The position numbers and the translations under genes are program-made. A DNA stretch of 38,069 nt from a virus. The notes under the pieces are model-generated. The model had not been told where the DNA came from. It ran no database searches and saw only the letters and a list, made by a program, of their open reading frames with translations. Location of the stretch: positions 1 through 38,069 of the IMG/VR virus record IMGVR_UViG_3300045988_128374. One strand, 5' to 3'. Position 1 is the stretch's first letter; each line of letters begins with the position of its first letter. Below, one piece after another: positions 20,879 to 38,069 of the stretch.

Positions 20879-22048
20879 TTAATCTTCATCATTTCCCATC
20901 AATAAATTTGCACCATACTCTTGTAATTCTTCTAAATAACTTTGAATTTCATCATCCAATATGCCACATTCTTTCATTTCCTTGTATAATCTTAATTTAT
21001 TATCATAATTTTCGATTTTCTTATTTTCCAAATCCATTTTTTGATTCTCTAAATTTATCTTTTTTTGTTCTACTTCTACTCCAACTGTTTTGATTTGTTT
21101 ATATAAATCTATTGGATTTGGAACCTTTATATTACCTATTTGTCCACCACTAATTACTATATATAGTCCTACAATGCCTGCTACCGCTTTAGACATTTTA
21201 CCTTTATTTCTATAGTTTTGCTCATCTTTCTTTGCATCATATGCCTTATCTAAATTTCTTTTCCCCGATGTAAAAGAAATTACACCTTTTGAATTCAAAT
21301 TAAGCATAATTGATAATTCATTCTCACCAACAACCCTTTTCATATAGCAATCTACGCAGCTCATTACTTTTGTTATTGAAGTTAAATCTATTGGTTTACT
21401 TGTATTTATATGCATTTGAAAAGAATAAGCTTCTCTCCAATAATATATAGGATATATCGTATCTAATATATATTTTCCATATTCATTTAAATTACAAATT
21501 CCCTGATATGATGATAATACTTTTAACAATTTAACATGTAGATTAGTATAATTGACTATCTTAATGATTTTAATTTTACGTCTTTTTTTATATGGGCATT
21601 TAACACTATATAATGGAATATTTTCCATATCTATTTTTGTTATTACATCAATTTCATCATCTTCGTTTAAATTATTCTGCTCATAATATTCGCCAACTTC
21701 AGCAAATGCTATTTTATTATCTTGCACTCCTGGAATCATAACAATATCGCCTATTTTTAAATTATATATGAATTTTTTACATTTACTAATTGCTTGACCC
21801 GGCCTTTTATCTCCATATATATTTTTTATATTTTCTTTAAGTATTTCAATCTGTTCATTTTTCATTGAATTGATTTCCATATTTAAATCTATTATATTCC
21901 ATCCCAATGCTACATAATTATTCTCTATGTATTCATTAAAAAAATAGCCTTTTTTTGTTCTTATCATCCAAAAATTTATATCTCCATTAATATATGGAAG
22001 TTCATAATTCAATATTTCTTTTATAAAATCTTCATTTATTTTCTCCAT
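20879..22048 (-). CDS. Unknown 389-aa protein: N-terminal sensor-like module, one hydrophobic segment, C-terminal coiled coil (accessory moron gene)
   Basis: GGGGG lies 5 nt before ATG 22048. The gene is very AT-rich compared with its flanks. The hydrophobic segment is at aa ~287-305 (KAVAGIVGLYIVISGGQIG). The C-terminus has the heptad-like sequence KKINLENQKMDLENKKIENYDNKL. Confidence 0.8.
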   Translation of the reverse strand: MEKINEDFIKEILNYELPYINGDINFWMIRTKKGYFFNEYIENNYVALGWNIIDLNMEINSMKNEQIEILKENIKNIYGDKRPGQAISKCKKFIYNLKIGDIVMIPGVQDNKIAFAEVGEYYEQNNLNEDDEIDVITKIDMENIPLYSVKCPYKKRRKIKIIKIVNYTNLHVKLLKVLSSYQGICNLNEYGKYILDTIYPIYYWREAYSFQMHINTSKPIDLTSITKVMSCVDCYMKRVVGENELSIMLNLNSKGVISFTSGKRNLDKAYDAKKDEQNYRNKGKMSKAVAGIVGLYIVISGGQIGNIKVPNPIDLYKQIKTVGVEVEQKKINLENQKMDLENKKIENYDNKLRLYKEMKECGILDDEIQSYLEELQEYGANLLMGNDED

Positions 22049-22099
22049 AAAAACCCCCTATAAGTTTTCTTGCGTATAATATTATACTAAATAATGACA

Positions 22100-22138
22100 A
22101 AAATCAACAAAACAAGGCACCAGCTTTCGCCGATGCCT
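22100..22138 (-). terminator. Rho-independent terminator after the late regulator gene
   Basis: The minus strand reads AGGCATCGGC-GAAA-GCTGGTGCCT followed by TGTTTTGTTGATTTTT. A TATAAT box (minus strand, 22081-22086) follows it. Confidence 0.6.
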
Positions 22139-22251
22139 CAGAGGGGGAGTTTTAATGATTGTATTGGCTGTCATCAGCCTATGGTTCAATGAATTTTTCA
22201 TCTGTTCCAGTTTAAATATTATCATATCAAAGTACGACATTTACGACAAAC

Positions 22252-22701
22252 TTATAATTTTTTCAAATATCTTTCAAGTGTCTTTTGGCAGCTATCTGCT
22301 GTATGATTTTTTCCCATTCTGTGAGCTATCTGAACCCATGTCAATTCATCAATGTACCGATATGTAAGAAGTCTTCTTATCCTGCTGTTTGGTTCCGAAT
22401 TAATAAATTCTTCTGCCACAGCTATCTGCTGCCGTATCTTCTCTTCTAGCTCCTGTAACTTAATTTTTCTCAATAGTAACTGTGATTTTTTCTCCGTATA
22501 TATTGGATAGGGGAAACCTTCAATCTTAAAATGCTGTTCCCCGCCATTTCCTCCCGAAACGCTGTCAATAACGGCTCCCTCTTTTTCTAATTTTTCAATA
22601 TACTGTTCAAGCCGTAATATAGCCTGCCGCTTGTCCTTATATTCTTCCTTTAAATCTGCTAACTGTTTTAAATACTCTTTTACATTCCCTTTTAAACTCA
22701 T
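22252..22701 (-). CDS. Late-gene transcriptional regulator, sigma-70 region-4-like (DUF1492/ArpU/RinA class)
   Basis: This is a 149-aa ORF. Its C-terminal HTH (RRLLTYRYIDELTWVQIAHRMG...SCQKTLERYLKKL) resembles region 4. It is the last early gene before the packaging module. Confidence 0.72.
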   Translation of the reverse strand: MSLKGNVKEYLKQLADLKEEYKDKRQAILRLEQYIEKLEKEGAVIDSVSGGNGGEQHFKIEGFPYPIYTEKKSQLLLRKIKLQELEEKIRQQIAVAEEFINSEPNSRIRRLLTYRYIDELTWVQIAHRMGKNHTADSCQKTLERYLKKL

Positions 22702-22769
22702 ATATCCACTTCCCTTATTGATTATATCTGTTTTTCATGCTACAATACATATGTTCGGTATATGAGTTT

Positions 22770-22809
22770 AGGAAGCCTGCGTATTCGTGTGTTACAGGCT
22801 TCCTTTTTC
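22770..22809 (+). other. 10-bp perfect hairpin with a T run on the plus strand (antisense-oriented terminator, or a 5'-UTR structure of the late regulator mRNA)
   Basis: AGGAAGCCTG, a 15-nt loop, then CAGGCTTCCT followed by TTTTCTTT on the plus strand. On the minus strand it lies between a TATAAT box and the late regulator RBS. Confidence 0.4.
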
Positions 22810-22841
22810 TTTGCTTGATTATACTTAAAAGTAATAGATTA

Positions 22842-23408
22842 TTATATATCAATTTTTAACTTTTTAGTATATTCTTCATCATATTGTTTTCTTTTGTCTA
22901 TCATACCATCTATAACCCGTTTATAATCAGAATAAAAATTTTCTTTAATAATTACGCTCTGTAATTTACTTATAAACGTATATATGCAGTATATATATAT
23001 TATTGCCAAAATTATTATCATAATATGTTGAAAAATAATAACGCCAATATTATAATATCCTATGCCAAATATATTCATTATGGAATCAAAAATTTTTTCT
23101 GTAATTAAAGTTAATAATACTACAATTATTATATCAGCTTCCTTTTTTAGTACTCCCATATTTCTCTTCTTTTGATTTAAATAGTCACTAAAATCTTTTA
23201 ATTTATCATCAGAAAATTGTTTATATTTATTGATAATATACCTTTCCCATTGTTTTTTACTTTCAAATTTGTTATCAGACTTCAATGTTTTTTTAGTTGA
23301 CTTATCCATAAATCCTCTACACAAATACGTATATATATCTCTTTCTTGTTTATCATCAAATCCATAATAATAAACTCCCAAGTTATTAAGATTTCTTTTT
23401 ATTCTCAT
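22842..23408 (-). CDS. AT-rich membrane protein (188 aa from ATG 23408), unknown function
   Basis: GGAG lies 5 nt before ATG 23408. The N-terminal half is soluble and Lys-rich, followed by 2-3 hydrophobic helices (IIIVVLLTLI, IGVIIFQHIMIIILAIIYIYCIYTFI). GC content is very low. Confidence 0.7.
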   Translation of the reverse strand: MRIKRNLNNLGVYYYGFDDKQERDIYTYLCRGFMDKSTKKTLKSDNKFESKKQWERYIINKYKQFSDDKLKDFSDYLNQKKRNMGVLKKEADIIIVVLLTLITEKIFDSIMNIFGIGYYNIGVIIFQHIMIIILAIIYIYCIYTFISKLQSVIIKENFYSDYKRVIDGMIDKRKQYDEEYTKKLKIDI

Positions 23409-23483
23409 TTTATACTCCAATCATAATGTGATAATTAAATCATATCACTCATGTCATTATAATTCAATTATACGTATATATTA

Positions 23484-23921
23484 CTAACTTTGCCTTCCTG
23501 TAATCTCTGCTTTTATTCTATTATTTTCTTCCTGCAAGACCATGTTCTGCTCTTTCAAATCCTTTATTTTCCTTAATGTCTCCATCATTTTGCACTCAGT
23601 TTCATATTCACACTGTGTGTCAGGCATATACTCTATACACATTTCACATATTTCTTCTCTGTCCATCCTCTGCTCCATGCGGTCCTGTTTATACTGTATC
23701 TGCTGCCCTATTTCTGTATCATCAATGTCATAAATATCTTTCAGCATTTCAAGGTATATTGTTACGTCTGCCATTTCTTCAACAAGGCTTTCTTTGCTTC
23801 CTATACCTCTTATCTGCTTGCTTACTGCCTGTATCAGTTCTGAACATTCTTCCATGCATATAACGCTCTGTGTTATTCTGCCATATTCTTTAATGGATCT
23901 TTCGATTATGTCCTTATTCAT
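23484..23921 (-). CDS. MazG-like nucleotide pyrophosphohydrolase with a Cys-rich / coiled-coil C-terminal extension
   Basis: The motif is EECSELIQAVSK...VEEMADVTIYLEML (the EExxE...ExxD pattern of all-alpha NTP-PPases). Confidence 0.78.
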   Translation of the reverse strand: MNKDIIERSIKEYGRITQSVICMEECSELIQAVSKQIRGIGSKESLVEEMADVTIYLEMLKDIYDIDDTEIGQQIQYKQDRMEQRMDREEICEMCIEYMPDTQCEYETECKMMETLRKIKDLKEQNMVLQEENNRIKAEITGRQS

Positions 23922-33071: not shown

Positions 33072-33308
33072 CTAAATTACAATATCCTTTGGTTCATTCG
33101 GATTCGTTAAATCCTTTCCCTCATTATCCCTGAAGAATCTTTCAAGCTCTGACTTTCTTATTCTTGTATGAGGGATTTTAAGCACCCTTATCTGATTTGC
33201 GTTGATAAGTGTATAAACATACTGTTTAGAAGCTCGCATGATTGTTGCCACTTCCTCCACTGTATACACCATATCCTCCGGCTCTCTCTTTATTGTTGCT
33301 ATCTTCAT
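33072..33308 (-). CDS. Excisionase-family (HTH_17/MerR-like) DNA-binding protein; possible Xis or early regulator
   Basis: The sequence YTVEEVATIMRASKQYVYTLINANQIRVLKIPHTRIRKSELERFF matches the excisionase-type HTH pattern. Confidence 0.7.
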   Translation of the reverse strand: MKIATIKREPEDMVYTVEEVATIMRASKQYVYTLINANQIRVLKIPHTRIRKSELERFFRDNEGKDLTNPNEPKDIVI

Positions 33309-34023: not shown

Positions 34024-34054
34024 CTCCTTGTTATATTACTTGCTTTGAATGTTT

Positions 34055-34073
34055 ACTTGAATTAATTTCAAGT
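34055..34073. promoter_or_regulatory. Operator-type palindrome ACTTGAA-N5-TTCAAGT (perfect copy) downstream of cro
   Basis: ACTTGAATTAATTTCAAGT follows the same 7-5-7 design as the four sites in the cI/cro intergenic region. Confidence 0.55.
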
Positions 34074-34090
34074 TTAAATTCAAAAAAAAA

Positions 34091-34291
34091 TTAAAATTTT
34101 ATCTGATTAAGAGTTACACCGAAATGCTCAGCAAGAGCTCTAACTTTACTTACTGCCACATTAGATATATCTTTTTCCCATGAGCAGTATGTTTGGGGAG
34201 AAATACCGATTTTGTTGGCAACTTGCTCCTGTGTTTCGTTTTTTCTTGCTCTTAATTCTTTAACGGAGAACTGCATTTCATTTGTATTCAA
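34091..34291 (-). CDS. Cro-like XRE-family HTH regulator
   Basis: The HTH reads LRARKNETQEQVANKIGISPQTYCSWE. The gene is divergent from the cI-like gene. The start is TTG 34291 (after GAGGTGAT) or ATG 34276. Confidence 0.8.
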   Translation of the reverse strand: MNTNEMQFSVKELRARKNETQEQVANKIGISPQTYCSWEKDISNVAVSKVRALAEHFGVTLNQIKF

Positions 34292-34311
34292 CTTTTCATC
34301 ACCTCATTTCA

Positions 34312-34428
34312 ACTTGAATTATTTTCAAGCATATGTTACTTGATTTATATTCAAGTGTCAATACCTTTTTTGAATTTATTTCAAGTTTTTTTATCTTTTT
34401 ATCAATTCTACTTGAATTTTCTTCAATT
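34312..34428. promoter_or_regulatory. Genetic switch: four ACTTGAA-N5-TTCAAGT-type operators
   Basis: The sites are at 34312-34330 (ACTTGAATTATTTTCAAGC), 34338-34356 (ACTTGATTTATATTCAAGT), 34368-34386 (TTTTGAATTTATTTCAAGT) and 34410-34428 (ACTTGAATTTTCTTCAATT). Confidence 0.65.
34333..34361 (-). promoter_or_regulatory. Putative lytic (cro) promoter
   Basis: On the minus strand: TTGACA (34361-34356), a 17-nt spacer, then TAACAT (34338-34333). The spacer coincides with operator 34338-34356. Confidence 0.55.
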
Positions 34429-34440
34429 ATATTATATTAT
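34412..34440 (+). promoter_or_regulatory. Putative repressor (cI) promoter
   Basis: TTGAAT (34412-34417), a 17-nt spacer, then TATTAT (34435-34440). The -35 box lies inside operator 34410-34428. Confidence 0.45.
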
Positions 34441-34474
34441 TCAAATATAAATTAAGAAGGGCGGTGACATTAAT

Positions 34475-34858
34475 ATGTGCCTTGGTGAAAACATACGTTT
34501 TTTAAGAACTAAAAAAGGATATTCTCAAGATGACATAGCCAATATGCTTGGTTATAAATCATTTACTACAATACAAAAATGGGAGTCTGGTGTTTCTGAA
34601 CCACCACTTAAAGCCTTAAAGAAATTATCTGAAATATTTAATATAGATATGAATGATTTAGCTACAAAAAAACTCTCTTATAATACTAATGAAGATAATA
34701 ATGTATATTATCTTGATGATGATGCAAGAGATATGGCTCAGTTCTTATATGAGAACCCTGATTATAAAGTTCTCTTTGATGCATCACGCAAGGTTAAAAA
34801 AGAAGATATTCAGTTTGTAAAGGAGATGATTGACCGAATGTCTAACAAAAATGATTAA
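34475..34858 (+). CDS. cI-like XRE-family repressor (127 aa)
   Basis: The HTH reads IRFLRTKKGYSQDDIANMLGYKSFTTIQKWESG. A C-terminal non-HTH domain is present. The gene is divergent from cro and followed by the ImmA-like ORF. Confidence 0.87.
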   Translation: MCLGENIRFLRTKKGYSQDDIANMLGYKSFTTIQKWESGVSEPPLKALKKLSEIFNIDMNDLATKKLSYNTNEDNNVYYLDDDARDMAQFLYENPDYKVLFDASRKVKKEDIQFVKEMIDRMSNKND

Positions 34859-34876
34859 AGATAAGAGGGTGAGAAA

Positions 34877-35098
34877 TTGGATACTAATATTTTATATGTA
34901 GATATGCCTACTACAATTAAGGCATATACTGTTTGCTGTGATGATGATACCTATACCGTAGTCTTAAATGCCAGACACTCAATGGAACAATTGATGTTGG
35001 CTTATCATCACGAGATGAAGCATATTGAAAATGGCGATTACGACAAGCCAGACAAAGATGTTCAGGTAATTGAAATATTTGCACATAGAGAAGAATAG
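34877..35098 (+). CDS. Mini ImmA/IrrE-like metallopeptidase-motif protein (73 aa)
   Basis: The motif HEMKH (HExxH) followed by ENGD is present. The TTG start follows GAGGGTGA. It lies directly downstream of the repressor, as in ImmR-ImmA pairs. Confidence 0.58.
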   Translation: MDTNILYVDMPTTIKAYTVCCDDDTYTVVLNARHSMEQLMLAYHHEMKHIENGDYDKPDKDVQVIEIFAHREE

Positions 35099-35109
35099 GG
35101 GGATATTAA

Positions 35110-36258
35110 ATGTTAATTAGCAAATCTGATTTAAAATCATTGAAAAAACAATACAACTTCTTAATGCATAATAAATTTTATATTTCTGTTCGTTATGTAC
35201 ATGGAATACCTAATCAAAAATTATCTACATGTGTTGTTGGATTATTTGAGGCTGGGTTGTTTCTTGATTTTTTTCTTGGCAAAAAATACATATATAACAT
35301 AAAAGATATTTCTAATGTTTTTTATTCAACATATTATATAGTTATTGAGTTTGCAGATAACTCGTTTTGGACATTAGTAGGTAATGAAAAACAAGTTACT
35401 AAAATATATTCCATATTAACTACAGAATACAATATTTCTTCAATAAGTAAAAATATTACGGACTATTTACCTAATATTATACCTAGCAATTCTGTGTCTG
35501 AAACATTAGAACATAATGAAATATCTGCATTAACAAATACTGAAAATGAAATAGAAACACCTGATAAAGCTGGATATGAACTTCCTGTTCAGATAAATGA
35601 TATTCATGAAACTGATAATAATGCTACTGCCCAAGAAAAACATATTGAGAATAAGGATGAACATATTAATTTTCCTGATTGGTATATCTCTGTATCTTTT
35701 GGGAAATCATCTTCAAGTAATTATATGAAAGCCGTTATGCTTGCGCAACAGGCTCCTCAATATCATACCCAGACTGACAATGGTGTTATCCTGCATCAAG
35801 CCATATATTCTAGCAAACCTAATGAATATCTTTCATTTATTAGTCTATATGAGCTTGTAGCAAACTGGAAATCATCTTTTGTAATAATCAATGGTAAAAT
35901 TATTGATAGAAAAATTGTAGGACAATTAAATTACTGTTATGGTGATAAATGCAGAAGTGGAAATCCTAATTTTTGTTATGGAGCAAGCTATATGACAGAA
36001 AACCCATTTGGCTGCCACCGACTTCAAGTAAGTGCTGCTAATAATCCATGGTGGTCATTCTATAGACTGATAGGAAACACATATGTTCTTAATCAAGCTG
36101 AGCTTAAAGAACGAATTGACTCTTATGCCTCTATATATTGCATATGTCCTTGTTTTAATTACACAAAAATTATTCAGGCATATAATTCTTTACCTGTTAA
36201 GTTATCACAAAAGAAATATGCTAAATTGTGGGCTGAGGGATTTGGACTTAAAATGTAG
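35110..36258 (+). CDS. Unknown 382-aa lysogeny-module cargo protein (candidate exclusion/defence or conversion gene)
   Basis: GGGGGA lies 6 nt before ATG 35110. The gene is AT-rich. Its layout is a beta-rich N-terminal ~115 aa, an Asn/Glu/Thr-rich linker, then a Cys-containing ~195-aa C-terminal domain. A strong terminator follows. Confidence 0.8.
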   Translation: MLISKSDLKSLKKQYNFLMHNKFYISVRYVHGIPNQKLSTCVVGLFEAGLFLDFFLGKKYIYNIKDISNVFYSTYYIVIEFADNSFWTLVGNEKQVTKIYSILTTEYNISSISKNITDYLPNIIPSNSVSETLEHNEISALTNTENEIETPDKAGYELPVQINDIHETDNNATAQEKHIENKDEHINFPDWYISVSFGKSSSSNYMKAVMLAQQAPQYHTQTDNGVILHQAIYSSKPNEYLSFISLYELVANWKSSFVIINGKIIDRKIVGQLNYCYGDKCRSGNPNFCYGASYMTENPFGCHRLQVSAANNPWWSFYRLIGNTYVLNQAELKERIDSYASIYCICPCFNYTKIIQAYNSLPVKLSQKKYAKLWAEGFGLKM

Positions 36259-36391
36259 CTGTATTATCGGCTTTGAACCAATGTTTTATATGTTGCAGAT
36301 ATGTGATTGTCCCACACACTTATTTAATTTGACTTTATAATATATAAATGGTAAGATAAATCCAACAGAAATGGTCGTTGTTAAATGACTG

Positions 36392-36440
36392 GCAAAAATC
36401 CCTCTTACCATTTATATGGACAGAGGGATTTTTGCTTTTA
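36392..36440 (+). terminator. Rho-independent terminator of the repressor-ImmA-cargo operon
   Basis: GCAAAAATCCCTCT, a 16-nt loop, then AGAGGGATTTTTGC followed by TTTTA. The stem is a perfect 14 bp. Confidence 0.75.
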
Positions 36441-36522
36441 ATTTTACAATATTTATATAAATAAAAGCCCCTGTGCTACCAACACAAGAGCTTTTACCAC
36501 GATACTTACATAAGCTGTGCCT

Positions 36523-36561
36523 ATGATATAATATCGCCCTAGACAAGCCATATTATATCAT
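36523..36561. promoter_or_regulatory. 12-bp inverted repeat containing a TATAAT box upstream of int
   Basis: ATGATATAATAT (36523-36534), a 15-nt spacer, then ATATTATATCAT (36550-36561). TATAAT lies at 36527-36532. Confidence 0.45.
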
Positions 36562-36627: not shown

Positions 36628-36656
36628 TTCCCCAAAAACAGAAAGGAATGATTAAT

Positions 36657-37868
36657 ATGAAAAAGAAAATATCTAAGGTCCTTACATATAAGCGTGGCAA
36701 TCTATGGGCCTATCGTTTCGAATCTGCCCCTGTAGATAGCAAAAGGAAGTGGATTACCAAGAGCGGATTTAAGAACCAATCTGAGGCATATGAAGCCGGT
36801 ATGGTCGCATACACACAATATAAACAGACTGGCAAGAGCTTCACTCCATCTAATATCTCTGTATCTGATTACATGGATTACTGGATTGATAATTATTGCA
36901 AGGTCAATCTTAAAGCTAATACGGCATCAACTTACAAAAAGAAAATTGATTTATATATAAAGCCGGCTATTGGTTCATATTATCTTAAAGACATAGAGCC
37001 AAGTCTTCTCCAGGAGCTTATAAATAATCTTTTTAATACCGGAATGTCGCGAAACTCTCTCGGCAATGTTAAGGGCATTCTTACCAAGTCATTTGCCTAC
37101 GCAAAGACTACTGCAAGATTTATTAATGATGACCCTTCTGCAACTATTTCTCTTCCGCTTCCAAGAGCAAAGGCAGAGGTTAAAACCAAAAAGAAAGTAA
37201 GAGTCGTATGGACTAATGAACAGCTTGATACTGTCTTTAAAACATTTGCACAAGGACATATATATCATATGCCACTTCTTCTCGCTTATAGGTGCGGCAT
37301 GCGTCTGGGTGAGATATTTGGTCTTATGTGGGATGATATAGACTTTGATAATGGAATATTAAGCATTAACAGACAGGTACAGAATCATGATGATAAATGG
37401 TATCTGGAAAACCCTAAATATGATTCATTTCGTACCATAGAACTTGATGATACAACGCTTTCAGAACTTAAAAGGATGTACGAACATGAAAAGGAATGTG
37501 AACAGTACTATAATGAATATTACAATTATATCTACTGTGAGACACTTGAAGATGACTCTAAGAGACTTACTTATGAGCCGGCTGGCGAATCAATGCATAT
37601 GGTGCTTGTAAGAGATGATGGCTCATGGATTCAGCCAAGAACAATGATGCACTGTTTTAATGTTATTCATCACAAGCTTGGCTTCACTGAGCTTGATTTC
37701 CATTCTCTCAGGCATACACACGCTTCTAATTTACTTGCCAAAGGAGCTGATGTTAAATATGTACAAGAGCGTCTGGGACATAAAAATGTAGCAACCACTC
37801 TTGATATATATGCCCATGTCACAGAAACCATGCGTGAGCGCAACAAGGACATATTAAATACACTATAA
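36657..37868 (+). CDS. int: Tyrosine recombinase / phage integrase
   Basis: Start placed at ATG 36657 (MKKKISKV) after GAAAGGA. The catalytic motifs are RCGMRLGEI, HSLRHTHAS and LGHKNVATTLDIYAHV. An N-terminal SAM-like arm/core-binding region is present. Confidence 0.93.
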   Translation: MKKKISKVLTYKRGNLWAYRFESAPVDSKRKWITKSGFKNQSEAYEAGMVAYTQYKQTGKSFTPSNISVSDYMDYWIDNYCKVNLKANTASTYKKKIDLYIKPAIGSYYLKDIEPSLLQELINNLFNTGMSRNSLGNVKGILTKSFAYAKTTARFINDDPSATISLPLPRAKAEVKTKKKVRVVWTNEQLDTVFKTFAQGHIYHMPLLLAYRCGMRLGEIFGLMWDDIDFDNGILSINRQVQNHDDKWYLENPKYDSFRTIELDDTTLSELKRMYEHEKECEQYYNEYYNYIYCETLEDDSKRLTYEPAGESMHMVLVRDDGSWIQPRTMMHCFNVIHHKLGFTELDFHSLRHTHASNLLAKGADVKYVQERLGHKNVATTLDIYAHVTETMRERNKDILNTL

Positions 37869-37869
37869 T

Positions 37870-37947
37870 AAAAAGGCATCTGTACACACATCTCATTGTA
37901 CACATTAAATCCTAATGTGTACAAAATGTGTACAAATGCCTTTTTTT
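37870..37947 (+). terminator. Compound three-segment hairpin built from TGTACA repeats (int terminator and/or arm-site cluster)
   Basis: AAAAAGGCAT (37870-79) pairs with ATGCCTTTTT (37936-45). TGTACACA (37881-88) pairs with TGTGTACA (37927-34). TTGTACACATT (37896-906) pairs with AATGTGTACAA (37914-24). A T run extends to 37947. Confidence 0.65.
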
Positions 37948-37952
37948 CAATG

Positions 37953-37974
37953 TGTACACATTAAAATTGTACAC
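37953..37974. promoter_or_regulatory. Two further TGTACAC repeats between the int terminator and the att core
   Basis: TGTACAC occurs at 37953-37959 and 37968-37974, in direct orientation with 15-bp spacing. Confidence 0.4.
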
Positions 37975-37992
37975 ATATCAAAATCGTAAAAA

Positions 37993-38069
37993 TTAGAACT
38001 TGCCGTTGTCCGCAGCTTCCTGAATCGCAACTGCAACTGCTACTGTAGCACCAACCATTGGGTTATTAC
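37993..38069 (-). CDS. 3' end of an ORF entering from beyond the right edge (putative host target gene completed by phage DNA), partial
   Basis: The minus-strand frame is open from the window edge through the whole 55-bp repeat: ..NNPMVGATVAVAVAIQEA (core) then ADNGKF-stop (37993-37995) in phage-side DNA. Confidence 0.35.
   Translation of the reverse strand, partial: NNPMVGATVAVAVAIQEAADNGKF
38015..38069. repeat. Terminal 55-bp direct repeat, right copy (putative att core)
   Basis: It is identical to 1-55 and lies 146 bp downstream of the integrase stop. Confidence 0.9.

Follow-up and report, generated by a model that had tools for sequence, protein, structure and literature searches.

The stretch of DNA analysed here, referred to as the window, is the IMG/VR virus record IMGVR_UViG_3300045988_128374 over its full length (positions 1 to 38,069). 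Its lysogeny module carries, between a repressor gene and an integrase gene, a gene for a protein of 382 amino acids (aa), hereafter X (Table 1). An open reading frame (ORF) of this length is expected by chance at ~1e-14 at 29% GC (hand estimate), and a word-indexed search returned 358 homologues, among them matches with E-values of 1e-253 down to 1e-67; because of these homologues X is, on sequence grounds, a real gene. The original prediction, a model's reading of the letters and their ORFs, had placed X directly 3′ of the co-oriented repressor with gaps of 18 and 11 nucleotides (nt), and both gaps proved exact (34859–34876 between the repressor gene and that of a small ImmA-like protein, 35099–35109 between the latter and X). 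The good ribosome-binding site that it reported is likewise present, AGGGGGA, 7 nt before the ATG. In the "repressor/ImmA pair" named there, the first member stands as a helix-turn-helix (HTH) repressor, which also matches PHROG transcriptional repressor and regulator families, but the second is a 73-aa truncated M78-like protein, here called mini-ImmA, with no Pfam match at E ≤ 1e-3.

From the divergent Cro-like gene to X, a promoter scan identified a single promoter-like site on the + strand. It lies upstream of the repressor gene and is probably the start of a repressor/mini-ImmA/X operon. Neither a terminator scan nor RNA folding revealed a terminator upstream of 36391 within this operon, which would end at a hairpin with a 15-bp perfect stem and a 4-bp inner extension (free energy −27.6 kcal/mol; z = −7.57 versus shuffles, with 0 of 200 shuffles equally stable). 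This hairpin was found by RNA folding and had been overlooked by the simple terminator scan, whose loop rule is 3–8 nt. The original prediction had X end at a perfect 14-bp-stem terminator (36392–36440); the strong hairpin is there, but 133 nt past the X stop codon. Its remark that X is AT-rich agrees with the numbers (GC 0.29 at 35–36 kb versus 0.35–0.43 in the structural genes), but the entire lysogeny module at 34–36 kb, repressor included, is equally AT-rich, and low GC is therefore not specific to X. Given this layout (promoter-like site, 18- and 11-nt gaps, terminator), X would be co-transcribed with the repressor and hence made in the lysogen.

Table 1 Features of the window and of related loci that bear on gene X (locus handles precede coordinates outside the window)
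Feature	Position	Strand	Basis or remark
HTH_17 protein, 77 aa, early region	33072-33305	-	E = 4.6e-11
Cro-like gene	34091-34291	-	divergent from repressor
Promoter-like site TTGAAT-17-TATTAT	34412..34440	+	upstream of repressor; consensus match only
cI-like HTH_3 repressor, 127 aa	34475..34858	+	first gene of operon; Pfam HTH_3 E = 1.7e-13
Truncated M78/ImmA-like mini-protein, 73 aa	34877..35098	+	HExxH motif (HHEMKH); phrog_20886
Ribosome-binding site AGGGGGA	35097..35103	+	read from sequence
Gene X, 382 aa plus stop codon	35110..36258	+	ATG start; ORF list
PH-like N-terminal domain, aa 5-110	35122..35439	+	AF2 model and Foldseek
Disordered acidic Asn/Glu/Thr-rich linker, aa 124-182	35479..35655	+	pLDDT 31-41
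Conserved C-terminal module, aa 183-382	35656..36255	+	AF2 model
Span of four universal Cys codons	35935..36147	+	presumed metal site
Codon C276	35935-35937	+	
Codon C289	35974-35976	+	
Codon C302	36013-36015	+	
Codon C346	36145-36147	+	
Intrinsic terminator hairpin, then U-tract CUUUUAAUUUU	36391..36436	+	RNA fold; predicted end of repressor operon
Promoter-like site of the integrase gene	36505-36532		promoter scan
Tyrosine integrase	36654..37868	+	Pfam Phage_integrase 7.6e-28, Phage_int_SAM_3, Arm-DNA-bind_4
287-aa slot occupant, IMG/VR contig 3300045988_076957	L118:5596-6456		PH-like N-domain, then Zn-ribbons, no Cys4 module
203-aa slot occupant	L121:5599-6207		resembles MuF-like/TPR N-terminal region of member P0078 (by eye only)
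369-aa slot occupant	L157:5609-6715		no Pfam or PADLOC match
296-aa slot occupant	L134:5635-6522		no Pfam or PADLOC match
577-aa slot occupant	L163:5618-7348		sub-threshold HATPase_c match only

The division of X into a beta-rich N-terminal domain, a low-complexity Asn/Glu/Thr linker and a Cys/His-rich C-terminal domain had been proposed from the letters, together with separate Foldseek searches of the two domains as a check, and the models bear it out. In the full-length AlphaFold (AF2) model, the N-terminal domain runs from one helix through seven beta-strands to a second helix that caps its C-terminal end, at a predicted local distance difference test (pLDDT) score of 55–85. Its top 50 Foldseek matches in the PDB are all PH, PTB, FERM-F3 or FACT PH domains (probability 1.00, best E-value 3.8e-4, target-normalized template-modelling score (TMt) up to 0.68 for single-domain PH targets). 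The modelled fold is thus PH-like: it shares the seven-strand plus C-terminal helix topology of the PH superfold, at moderate pLDDT and with no membership of a PH sequence family. Indeed, no Pfam PH or bPH family matched this domain at E ≤ 1, and an index of 5.8 billion proteins, which overlooks relatives at ~39% identity, returned only near-identical copies. The linker is predicted to be disordered (pLDDT 31–41) and has an isoelectric point (pI) of 4.35; it cannot be aligned among family members. The N-terminus of X, MLISKSDLKSLKKQ, holds no hydrophobic signal peptide or lipobox.

The C-terminal module, modelled alone with 79 homologues, forms a compact unit (pLDDT 95.0, predicted template-modelling score 0.85). 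In the model, a ferredoxin-like beta-alpha-beta-beta-alpha-beta unit is followed by a long helix, by an irregular loop of 30 residues and by a small subdomain of helical/beta type. Foldseek searches with the module against the PDB and BFVD yielded nothing at E ≤ 1e-3; the weak matches were generic ACT/RAM/PII-type ferredoxin folds over ~80–90 residues (best E = 4.7e-3, query-normalized template-modelling score ~0.26). In the model, the first ~80 residues have the topology of the ACT, RAM and PII folds, and their beta1-alpha1 loop is highly conserved within the family; the matches to these folds are not significant, and none of them has a counterpart of the Cys-stapled second half. In ACT domains the beta1-alpha1 loop is the place of ligand binding. 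Neither the sequence of X nor the family profile matched any PDB sequence. No family had been recognized from the letters, and this held when libraries were searched: X has 0 matches in Pfam, NCBIfam and PADLOC, and its only library match is phrog_16260 (E = 5e-9), a match that reaches no further than the first half of either module or profile (aa 176–286 versus profile positions 8–122 of 213). This PHROG is unannotated and carries no functional information. The module is mildly basic (median pI 8.2, net charge +2); nucleic-acid binding was also considered from charge, and these values are uninformative in that respect.

When 1.84 billion cluster representatives (50% identity) were searched exhaustively with a profile, the module proved to belong to a family of 804 representatives at E ≤ 1e-3, of which 345 remain at E ≤ 1e-10 and 131 at E ≤ 1e-30. 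The full-length architecture of X is common to four clusters only. The remaining homologues align to X in the C-terminal module alone, which stays 50–70% identical across hosts from Lachnospiraceae to Bacillaceae. The module is preceded by N-terminal extensions of 14–367 aa that cannot be aligned, and C-terminal tails occur in 41 of 120 among the matches listed. Among 125 divergent representatives, four cysteines in the spacing C-x12-C-x12-C-x43-C are practically invariant (C276, C289, C302 and C346 at 100%, 99%, 100% and 100%). Conservation is also high at P347 and P362 (98–100%), at N298, F300 and G301 (94–99%), at W253 and K254 (97–98%), in the beta1-alpha1 loop F197-G-K-S200-x-S202 (94–98%), and at H303 and R304 (86%). 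The other cysteines C281, C344 and C348 are variable and individually dispensable. As the four cysteines are universal and these three are not needed, a single Cys4 metal site would staple the long loop of the module, and metal binding by this site is what the pattern suggests. A second metal site was considered from co-loss of the extra Cys and His residues and set aside, the patterns showing only that C281, C344 and C348 can each be lost.

All domains found in fusion with the module are of adaptor or tether type (Zn-ribbons, TM2, TPR, Phage_Mu_F-like Zn motifs, GYF_2, SAP and DUF2513). Transmembrane segments are predicted in 65 of 142 members, in some as C-terminal tail anchors, and both soluble forms and minimal members of ~227 aa (the module plus ~27 aa) exist. 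From the adaptor-only fusions, the membrane- and tail-anchored members and these minimal forms, the module seems to be a functional core in its own right, probably a cytoplasmic one. Family members are labelled hypothetical in every public source, and the family, the module fold and the modular design are undescribed in the libraries searched.

The cluster containing X is assigned to Lachnospira sp. metagenome-assembled genomes and to Caudoviricetes, and one member of its 90% cluster occurs on 391 contigs. In a motif-based scan of GTDB (one genome per species), the family was found in Bacillota only, in Lachnospiraceae, Oscillospiraceae, Clostridium, Tissierellia, Acetobacterium, two Bacillaceae and one Enterococcus. 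The module had no match in 50,697 GenBank phage records searched by tblastn with three family members. In that search only the Enterococcus member gave a match, between its N-terminus and a C-terminal segment of gp15 of phiCD38-2, a C. difficile phage: aa 40–156 of the E. diestrammenae protein (L031:5404-6618) are ~30% identical to the gp15 segment (L114:3237-3878). The gp15 gene lies immediately upstream of the tape-measure gene and is annotated as DUF4236-containing. DUF4236 was tried as the N-terminal adaptor and rejected because Pfam does not call it in the Enterococcus protein; the weaker similarity to gp15 was kept. In two loci, Clostridium algifaecis (L020:5575-6714) and IMG/VR contig L098 (X211 + X156), the family gene is split into two adjacent ORFs, likely by a frameshift or as a pseudogene. 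Members of 446 aa with a helical N-terminal region lie outside any recognizable prophage in Lederbergia (L024:5317-6657), where the gene adjoins mutL/mutS, and in Siminovitchia (L022:5377-6717).

Genomic context was compared across the family by annotating neighbours with local hidden Markov models (HMMs), built from Pfam-annotated neighbours and applied to 22 genome and 76 IMG/VR loci. The counts that follow span 108 loci, which collapsed to 46 clusters at 70% identity. The local HMMs are crude and the ORF caller is simple, and all neighbour fractions are to be read as lower bounds. A co-oriented HTH repressor lies at most three ORFs upstream of X in 31 of 39 informative clusters (~80%), X is immediately 3′ of the repressor or M78 gene in 25 of 39, and a co-oriented tyrosine or serine recombinase follows downstream in 28 of 37 clusters. 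The median gap between the upstream gene and X is 18 nt. On the Pfam-annotated contigs of five members, the order is always repressor, sometimes M78, X, sometimes cargo, and recombinase; these prophages otherwise differ in their replication modules. X follows HTH-only repressors, HTH repressors with M78, and HTH-S24 repressors, and a self-cleaving HTH+S24 repressor stands directly upstream in five lineages (L032, L097, L102, L104, L113). Only 16 of 46 clusters have an M78 or mini-ImmA gene close by, and the order is HTH-X-M78 in L011, L016, L018, L019 and L031. Because of the S24 repressors, the low M78 co-occurrence and the HTH-X-M78 order, X is, as far as gene order tells, linked to the repressor gene as such, independent of the induction mechanism.

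We then examined what related phages carry in the position of X by searching IMG/VR with the window repressor as query. Phages with a 99–100% identical repressor and the same mini-ImmA carry other genes, or none, after the mini-ImmA gene, and X is present in only 4 of ~55 informative loci. Genes directly following mini-ImmA encode proteins of 287 + 548 aa, 547 aa, 351 + 125 + 356 aa or 535 aa; in L150 and L176 the slot is empty and the integrase gene comes next. Since these sister phages do without X, it is not needed for the switch, and its description as a cargo gene in the original prediction is borne out: judged from these comparisons, X is dispensable cargo and not a necessary part of the switch.

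The suggestion that this slot commonly holds exclusion or abortive-infection genes was also supported by the survey. PADLOC matches among the occupants include PD-Lambda-1 (T5orf172/MUG113, E = 9e-83) and AbiD/Abi_2 (E = 1.7e-35), and Pfam identifies an HSDR_N/PD-(D/E)XK protein and a PemK/MazF-like protein. PDC-S19 (E = 1e-138, PADLOC) lies between X and the integrase gene in L115–L117, a SIR2-type PDC-S25 (E = 7e-112, PADLOC) occurs as occupant or slot-mate, and Mrr_cat, DUF3800 and HicAB (Pfam) are slot-mates elsewhere. By virtue of PD-Lambda-1, AbiD, PDC-S19, PDC-S25, HSDR_N, Mrr_cat, MazF-like and HicAB genes found in it, the post-repressor slot is, by annotation, a defence hotspot. Four further occupants (in L121, L157, L134 and L163), with little or no annotation, are candidate defence genes. 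The 287-aa occupant in L118 was found by context rather than with the protein index. Its N-domain is 39% identical to the PH-like domain of X (E = 2e-22), its gene lies upstream of a PD-Lambda-1-like gene, and the phage repressor is 100% identical to that of the window. Because this protein has Zn-ribbons in place of the module, the PH-like adaptor and the Cys4 core are, on this comparison, shuffled independently.

Among known systems, the closest parallel in position is provided by repressor-linked exclusion genes. Genes 43 and 44 of the Gordonia phage CarolAnn are co-transcribed with the immunity repressor, like lambda rexAB with cI, and RNA sequencing shows that repressor-linked genes are expressed in lysogens (PMC6426606). 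X resembles both in lying directly 3′ of, and co-oriented with, the repressor gene; it shares RexAB-like co-transcription by sequence layout only, and some members of its family are membrane-associated, as in RexAB. In contrast to these two-gene systems, X is a single gene with no conserved partner across loci and a different fold, without a RexA-type DUF4747 domain or a RexB-like polytopic membrane protein (0 Pfam matches). A position between repressor and integrase is also shared with the Ltp/Sie2009-type superinfection-exclusion (Sie) genes of streptococcal and lactococcal phages, ltp residing in the lysogeny module of TP-J34 (PMC3952083). However, Ltp acts from outside the membrane, as a lipoprotein that prevents the injection of DNA, whereas X lacks a signal peptide and lipobox, its Cys4 module is most likely cytoplasmic as tail-anchored and soluble family forms exist, and there is no sequence or fold similarity.

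PD-Lambda-1/T5orf172, AbiD/Abi_2, PDC-S19 and PDC-S25/SIR2 occupy the same genomic position in sister phages with the same repressor, and several such hotspot proteins combine an N-terminal transmembrane or adaptor region with a C-terminal core as the X family does. X is homologous to none of them, and no effector chemistry, such as that of a nuclease or NADase, is recognizable in it. In staphylococci, the abortive-infection protein PdpSau likewise joins a membrane-bound N-terminus to a cytoplasmic C-terminal part, but its gene lies in the lysis module (PMC10127798), unlike X. X does not show the obligate co-occurrence with an M78 protease and its HTH-only repressor that would mark a component of the ImmR/ImmA switch. 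The original prediction would have been overturned by clear homology to an antirepressor or a recombination directionality factor, and none was found: X falls outside every known defence, Sie, RexAB, ImmA-partner, recombination directionality factor and antirepressor family to which it was compared by sequence. By analogy, X may function as repressor-linked exclusion genes of temperate phages do, whose position it shares in any case.

These observations lead us to propose that X is expressed in the lysogen and belongs to a new family of exclusion or abortive-infection proteins that act as single genes, a reading that we regard as evenly poised between right and wrong. In this model, X would be an exchangeable accessory (moron) gene that is transcribed along with the repressor and so expressed in the lysogen, and its product would protect the lysogen from other phages by superinfection exclusion or abortive infection as a single polypeptide. 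The 200-aa C-terminal module would be the functional core, cytoplasmic and held by the Cys4 site, with Zn as the simplest choice of metal. It would present a near-invariant loop surface (YCYGDxCRS...C.GAS..T.NPFGCHR) and, on its ferredoxin/ACT-like subdomain, the conserved beta1-alpha1 loop FGKSxS. The interchangeable N-terminal part would position or target the module, in X by a PH-like domain that a flexible, acidic linker connects to it and in relatives by a transmembrane anchor, Zn-ribbon, TPR, MuF-like or tail-gene-like segment. The location would be cytoplasmic and membrane-proximal; anti-phage activity and the stage at which it acts belong to the conjectural part of this proposal. The adaptors that resemble MuF-like Zn motifs and phiCD38-2 gp15, although these matches are weak, hint at recognition of incoming phage components. 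For the family as a whole, we put forward more tentatively that the Cys4 module defines a new and widespread single-gene anti-phage or exclusion family in Bacillota prophages, with a fold not found in the PDB or BFVD and with adaptors that set the site of action or the phage component recognized.

Several points weigh against the exclusion proposal. No known defence protein is homologous to X (PADLOC-DB v2.0.0 gave 0 families at E ≤ 10), and no enzymatic effector domain is recognizable among the domains of the module family. Location in a hotspot is a statistical argument, and toxin–antitoxin pairs and conversion genes share such slots. With 50–70% identity kept between Lachnospiraceae and Bacillaceae, the module is conserved to a degree unusual in an arms-race protein, and some copies lie outside prophages, as beside mutL/mutS in Lederbergia. 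The neighbour fractions come from home-made HMMs and a simple ORF caller, as lower bounds, and the loci were collected by motif-based scans that are biased to conserved members.

Two other assignments were set aside. A transmembrane effector with the module as sensor, as in CBASS/Pycsar 2TM-like systems, was dropped since minimal and soluble forms fill the same slot. Recombination directionality factor, excisionase or antirepressor functions find no Xis/HTH_17 or Ant/BRO homology, and neither the size of X nor its membrane-anchored relatives fit them.

Conservation of the module also bears on an unlikely alternative, in which X is a lysogenic-conversion factor whose module binds or modifies a conserved host component (membrane, envelope, sporulation or signalling) and aids the lysogen without acting on phages. 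A module so constant across distant Bacillota hosts fits a conserved cellular target, the ACT/ferredoxin-like subdomain with its conserved beta1-alpha1 loop could bind a small molecule, and both the chromosomal copies outside prophages in Bacillaceae and the adaptor-type fusions can be accommodated. However, the slot-mates of X are overwhelmingly defence or abortive-infection genes, and the similarity of some adaptors to proteins of phage morphogenesis, namely MuF and a C-terminal segment of phiCD38-2 gp15, would point to phage rather than host targets.

Tight adjacency to the repressor in ~80% of lineages, together with the five loci in which X lies between repressor and M78, raises the improbable case of an accessory regulator of the lysis–lysogeny switch. 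Its Cys4/ACT-like module would sense redox state, a metal or a small molecule and tune repressor stability or ImmA activity, for which a Cys cluster on a ligand-binding-type fold would be suited. Phages with an identical repressor and mini-ImmA nevertheless lack X or carry unrelated genes in its place, X occurs with self-cleaving S24 repressors and without an M78 gene, M78 or mini-ImmA being nearby in little more than a third of clusters, and many family members are membrane-anchored. A role as third component of an ImmR/ImmA switch was rejected on the S24 repressors, the M78 co-occurrence and the identical-repressor sisters without X. We give very little credence to an addiction or stabilization element, in which X would be toxin-like or growth-arresting and penalize prophage loss: HicAB and MazF-like modules do occupy the same slot and the high conservation suggests a cellular target, but no antitoxin partner is conserved across loci, immediate neighbours vary, no toxin fold or family is recognized, and X would by its layout be constitutively co-expressed with the repressor.

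Other features of the window concern the switch and the phage genome as a whole. The palindrome ACTTGAA-N5-TTCAAGT occurs in five copies within 34040–34475 (~34055, 34312, 34338, 34370 and 34410), four between the Cro-like gene and the repressor gene and one downstream of the Cro-like gene; these are likely the operators of the genetic switch. The repressor promoter-like site sits inside this cluster. The window mini-ImmA matches phrog_20886 over its full length (E = 5e-12), and a 76-aa sibling reaches Peptidase_M78 at 22.8 bits versus a cutoff of 22 (profile positions 7–66 of 123). The protein keeps only the N-terminal half of the M78 fold, HExxH included; many related phages carry the same short form, conserved as a partner of the repressor.

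The first 55 bp of the window are identical to the last 55 bp (1–55 and 38015–38069), a signature of circular assembly, and the window is therefore probably a complete circular phage genome of ~38,014 bp rather than part of one. At least nine TGTACA(C/A) motifs at 37881–37975 and ~205–240 flank the circular junction just downstream of the integrase gene and are probably arm-type integrase sites around attP. The reverse strand of 37990–38069 resembles a protein C-terminus (...NNPMVGATVAVAVAIQEAADNGKF*) and may duplicate the 3′ end of the host gene targeted by integration; no tRNA gene is present. A second low-GC island (20879–23921, − strand, GC 0.25–0.32) lies between the packaging/head and replication genes and may be another cargo region; none of its four ORFs (388, 148, 191 and 144 aa) has a Pfam family. 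The HTH_17 protein of the early region is a possible excisionase or small regulator. A megablast search with 25 kb of the window against the 50,697 GenBank phage records returned no match.

Collectively, these results make X a good candidate for a new phage-exclusion protein. Its module family is, by sequence and gene order, a large and unnamed one that temperate phages of gut Firmicutes carry just after the repressor gene. Lachnospiraceae and related Clostridia dominate the human gut, where their prophages are abundant and the genes expressed in lysogens are almost wholly unannotated. Unknowns located in hotspots are common; the X family, however, combines large size, good conservation, a confident model and abundance in the human gut, and it can be tested directly. 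X itself can be cloned, its structural model is confident and four targets for mutagenesis stand out, and the sister phages that share its repressor and carry known defence genes in the same slot offer a natural experiment. Should the family prove active, prophage defence in Gram-positive anaerobes would gain both a new fold and a new kind of modular logic, and the post-repressor position in these phages would become a place to mine further systems.

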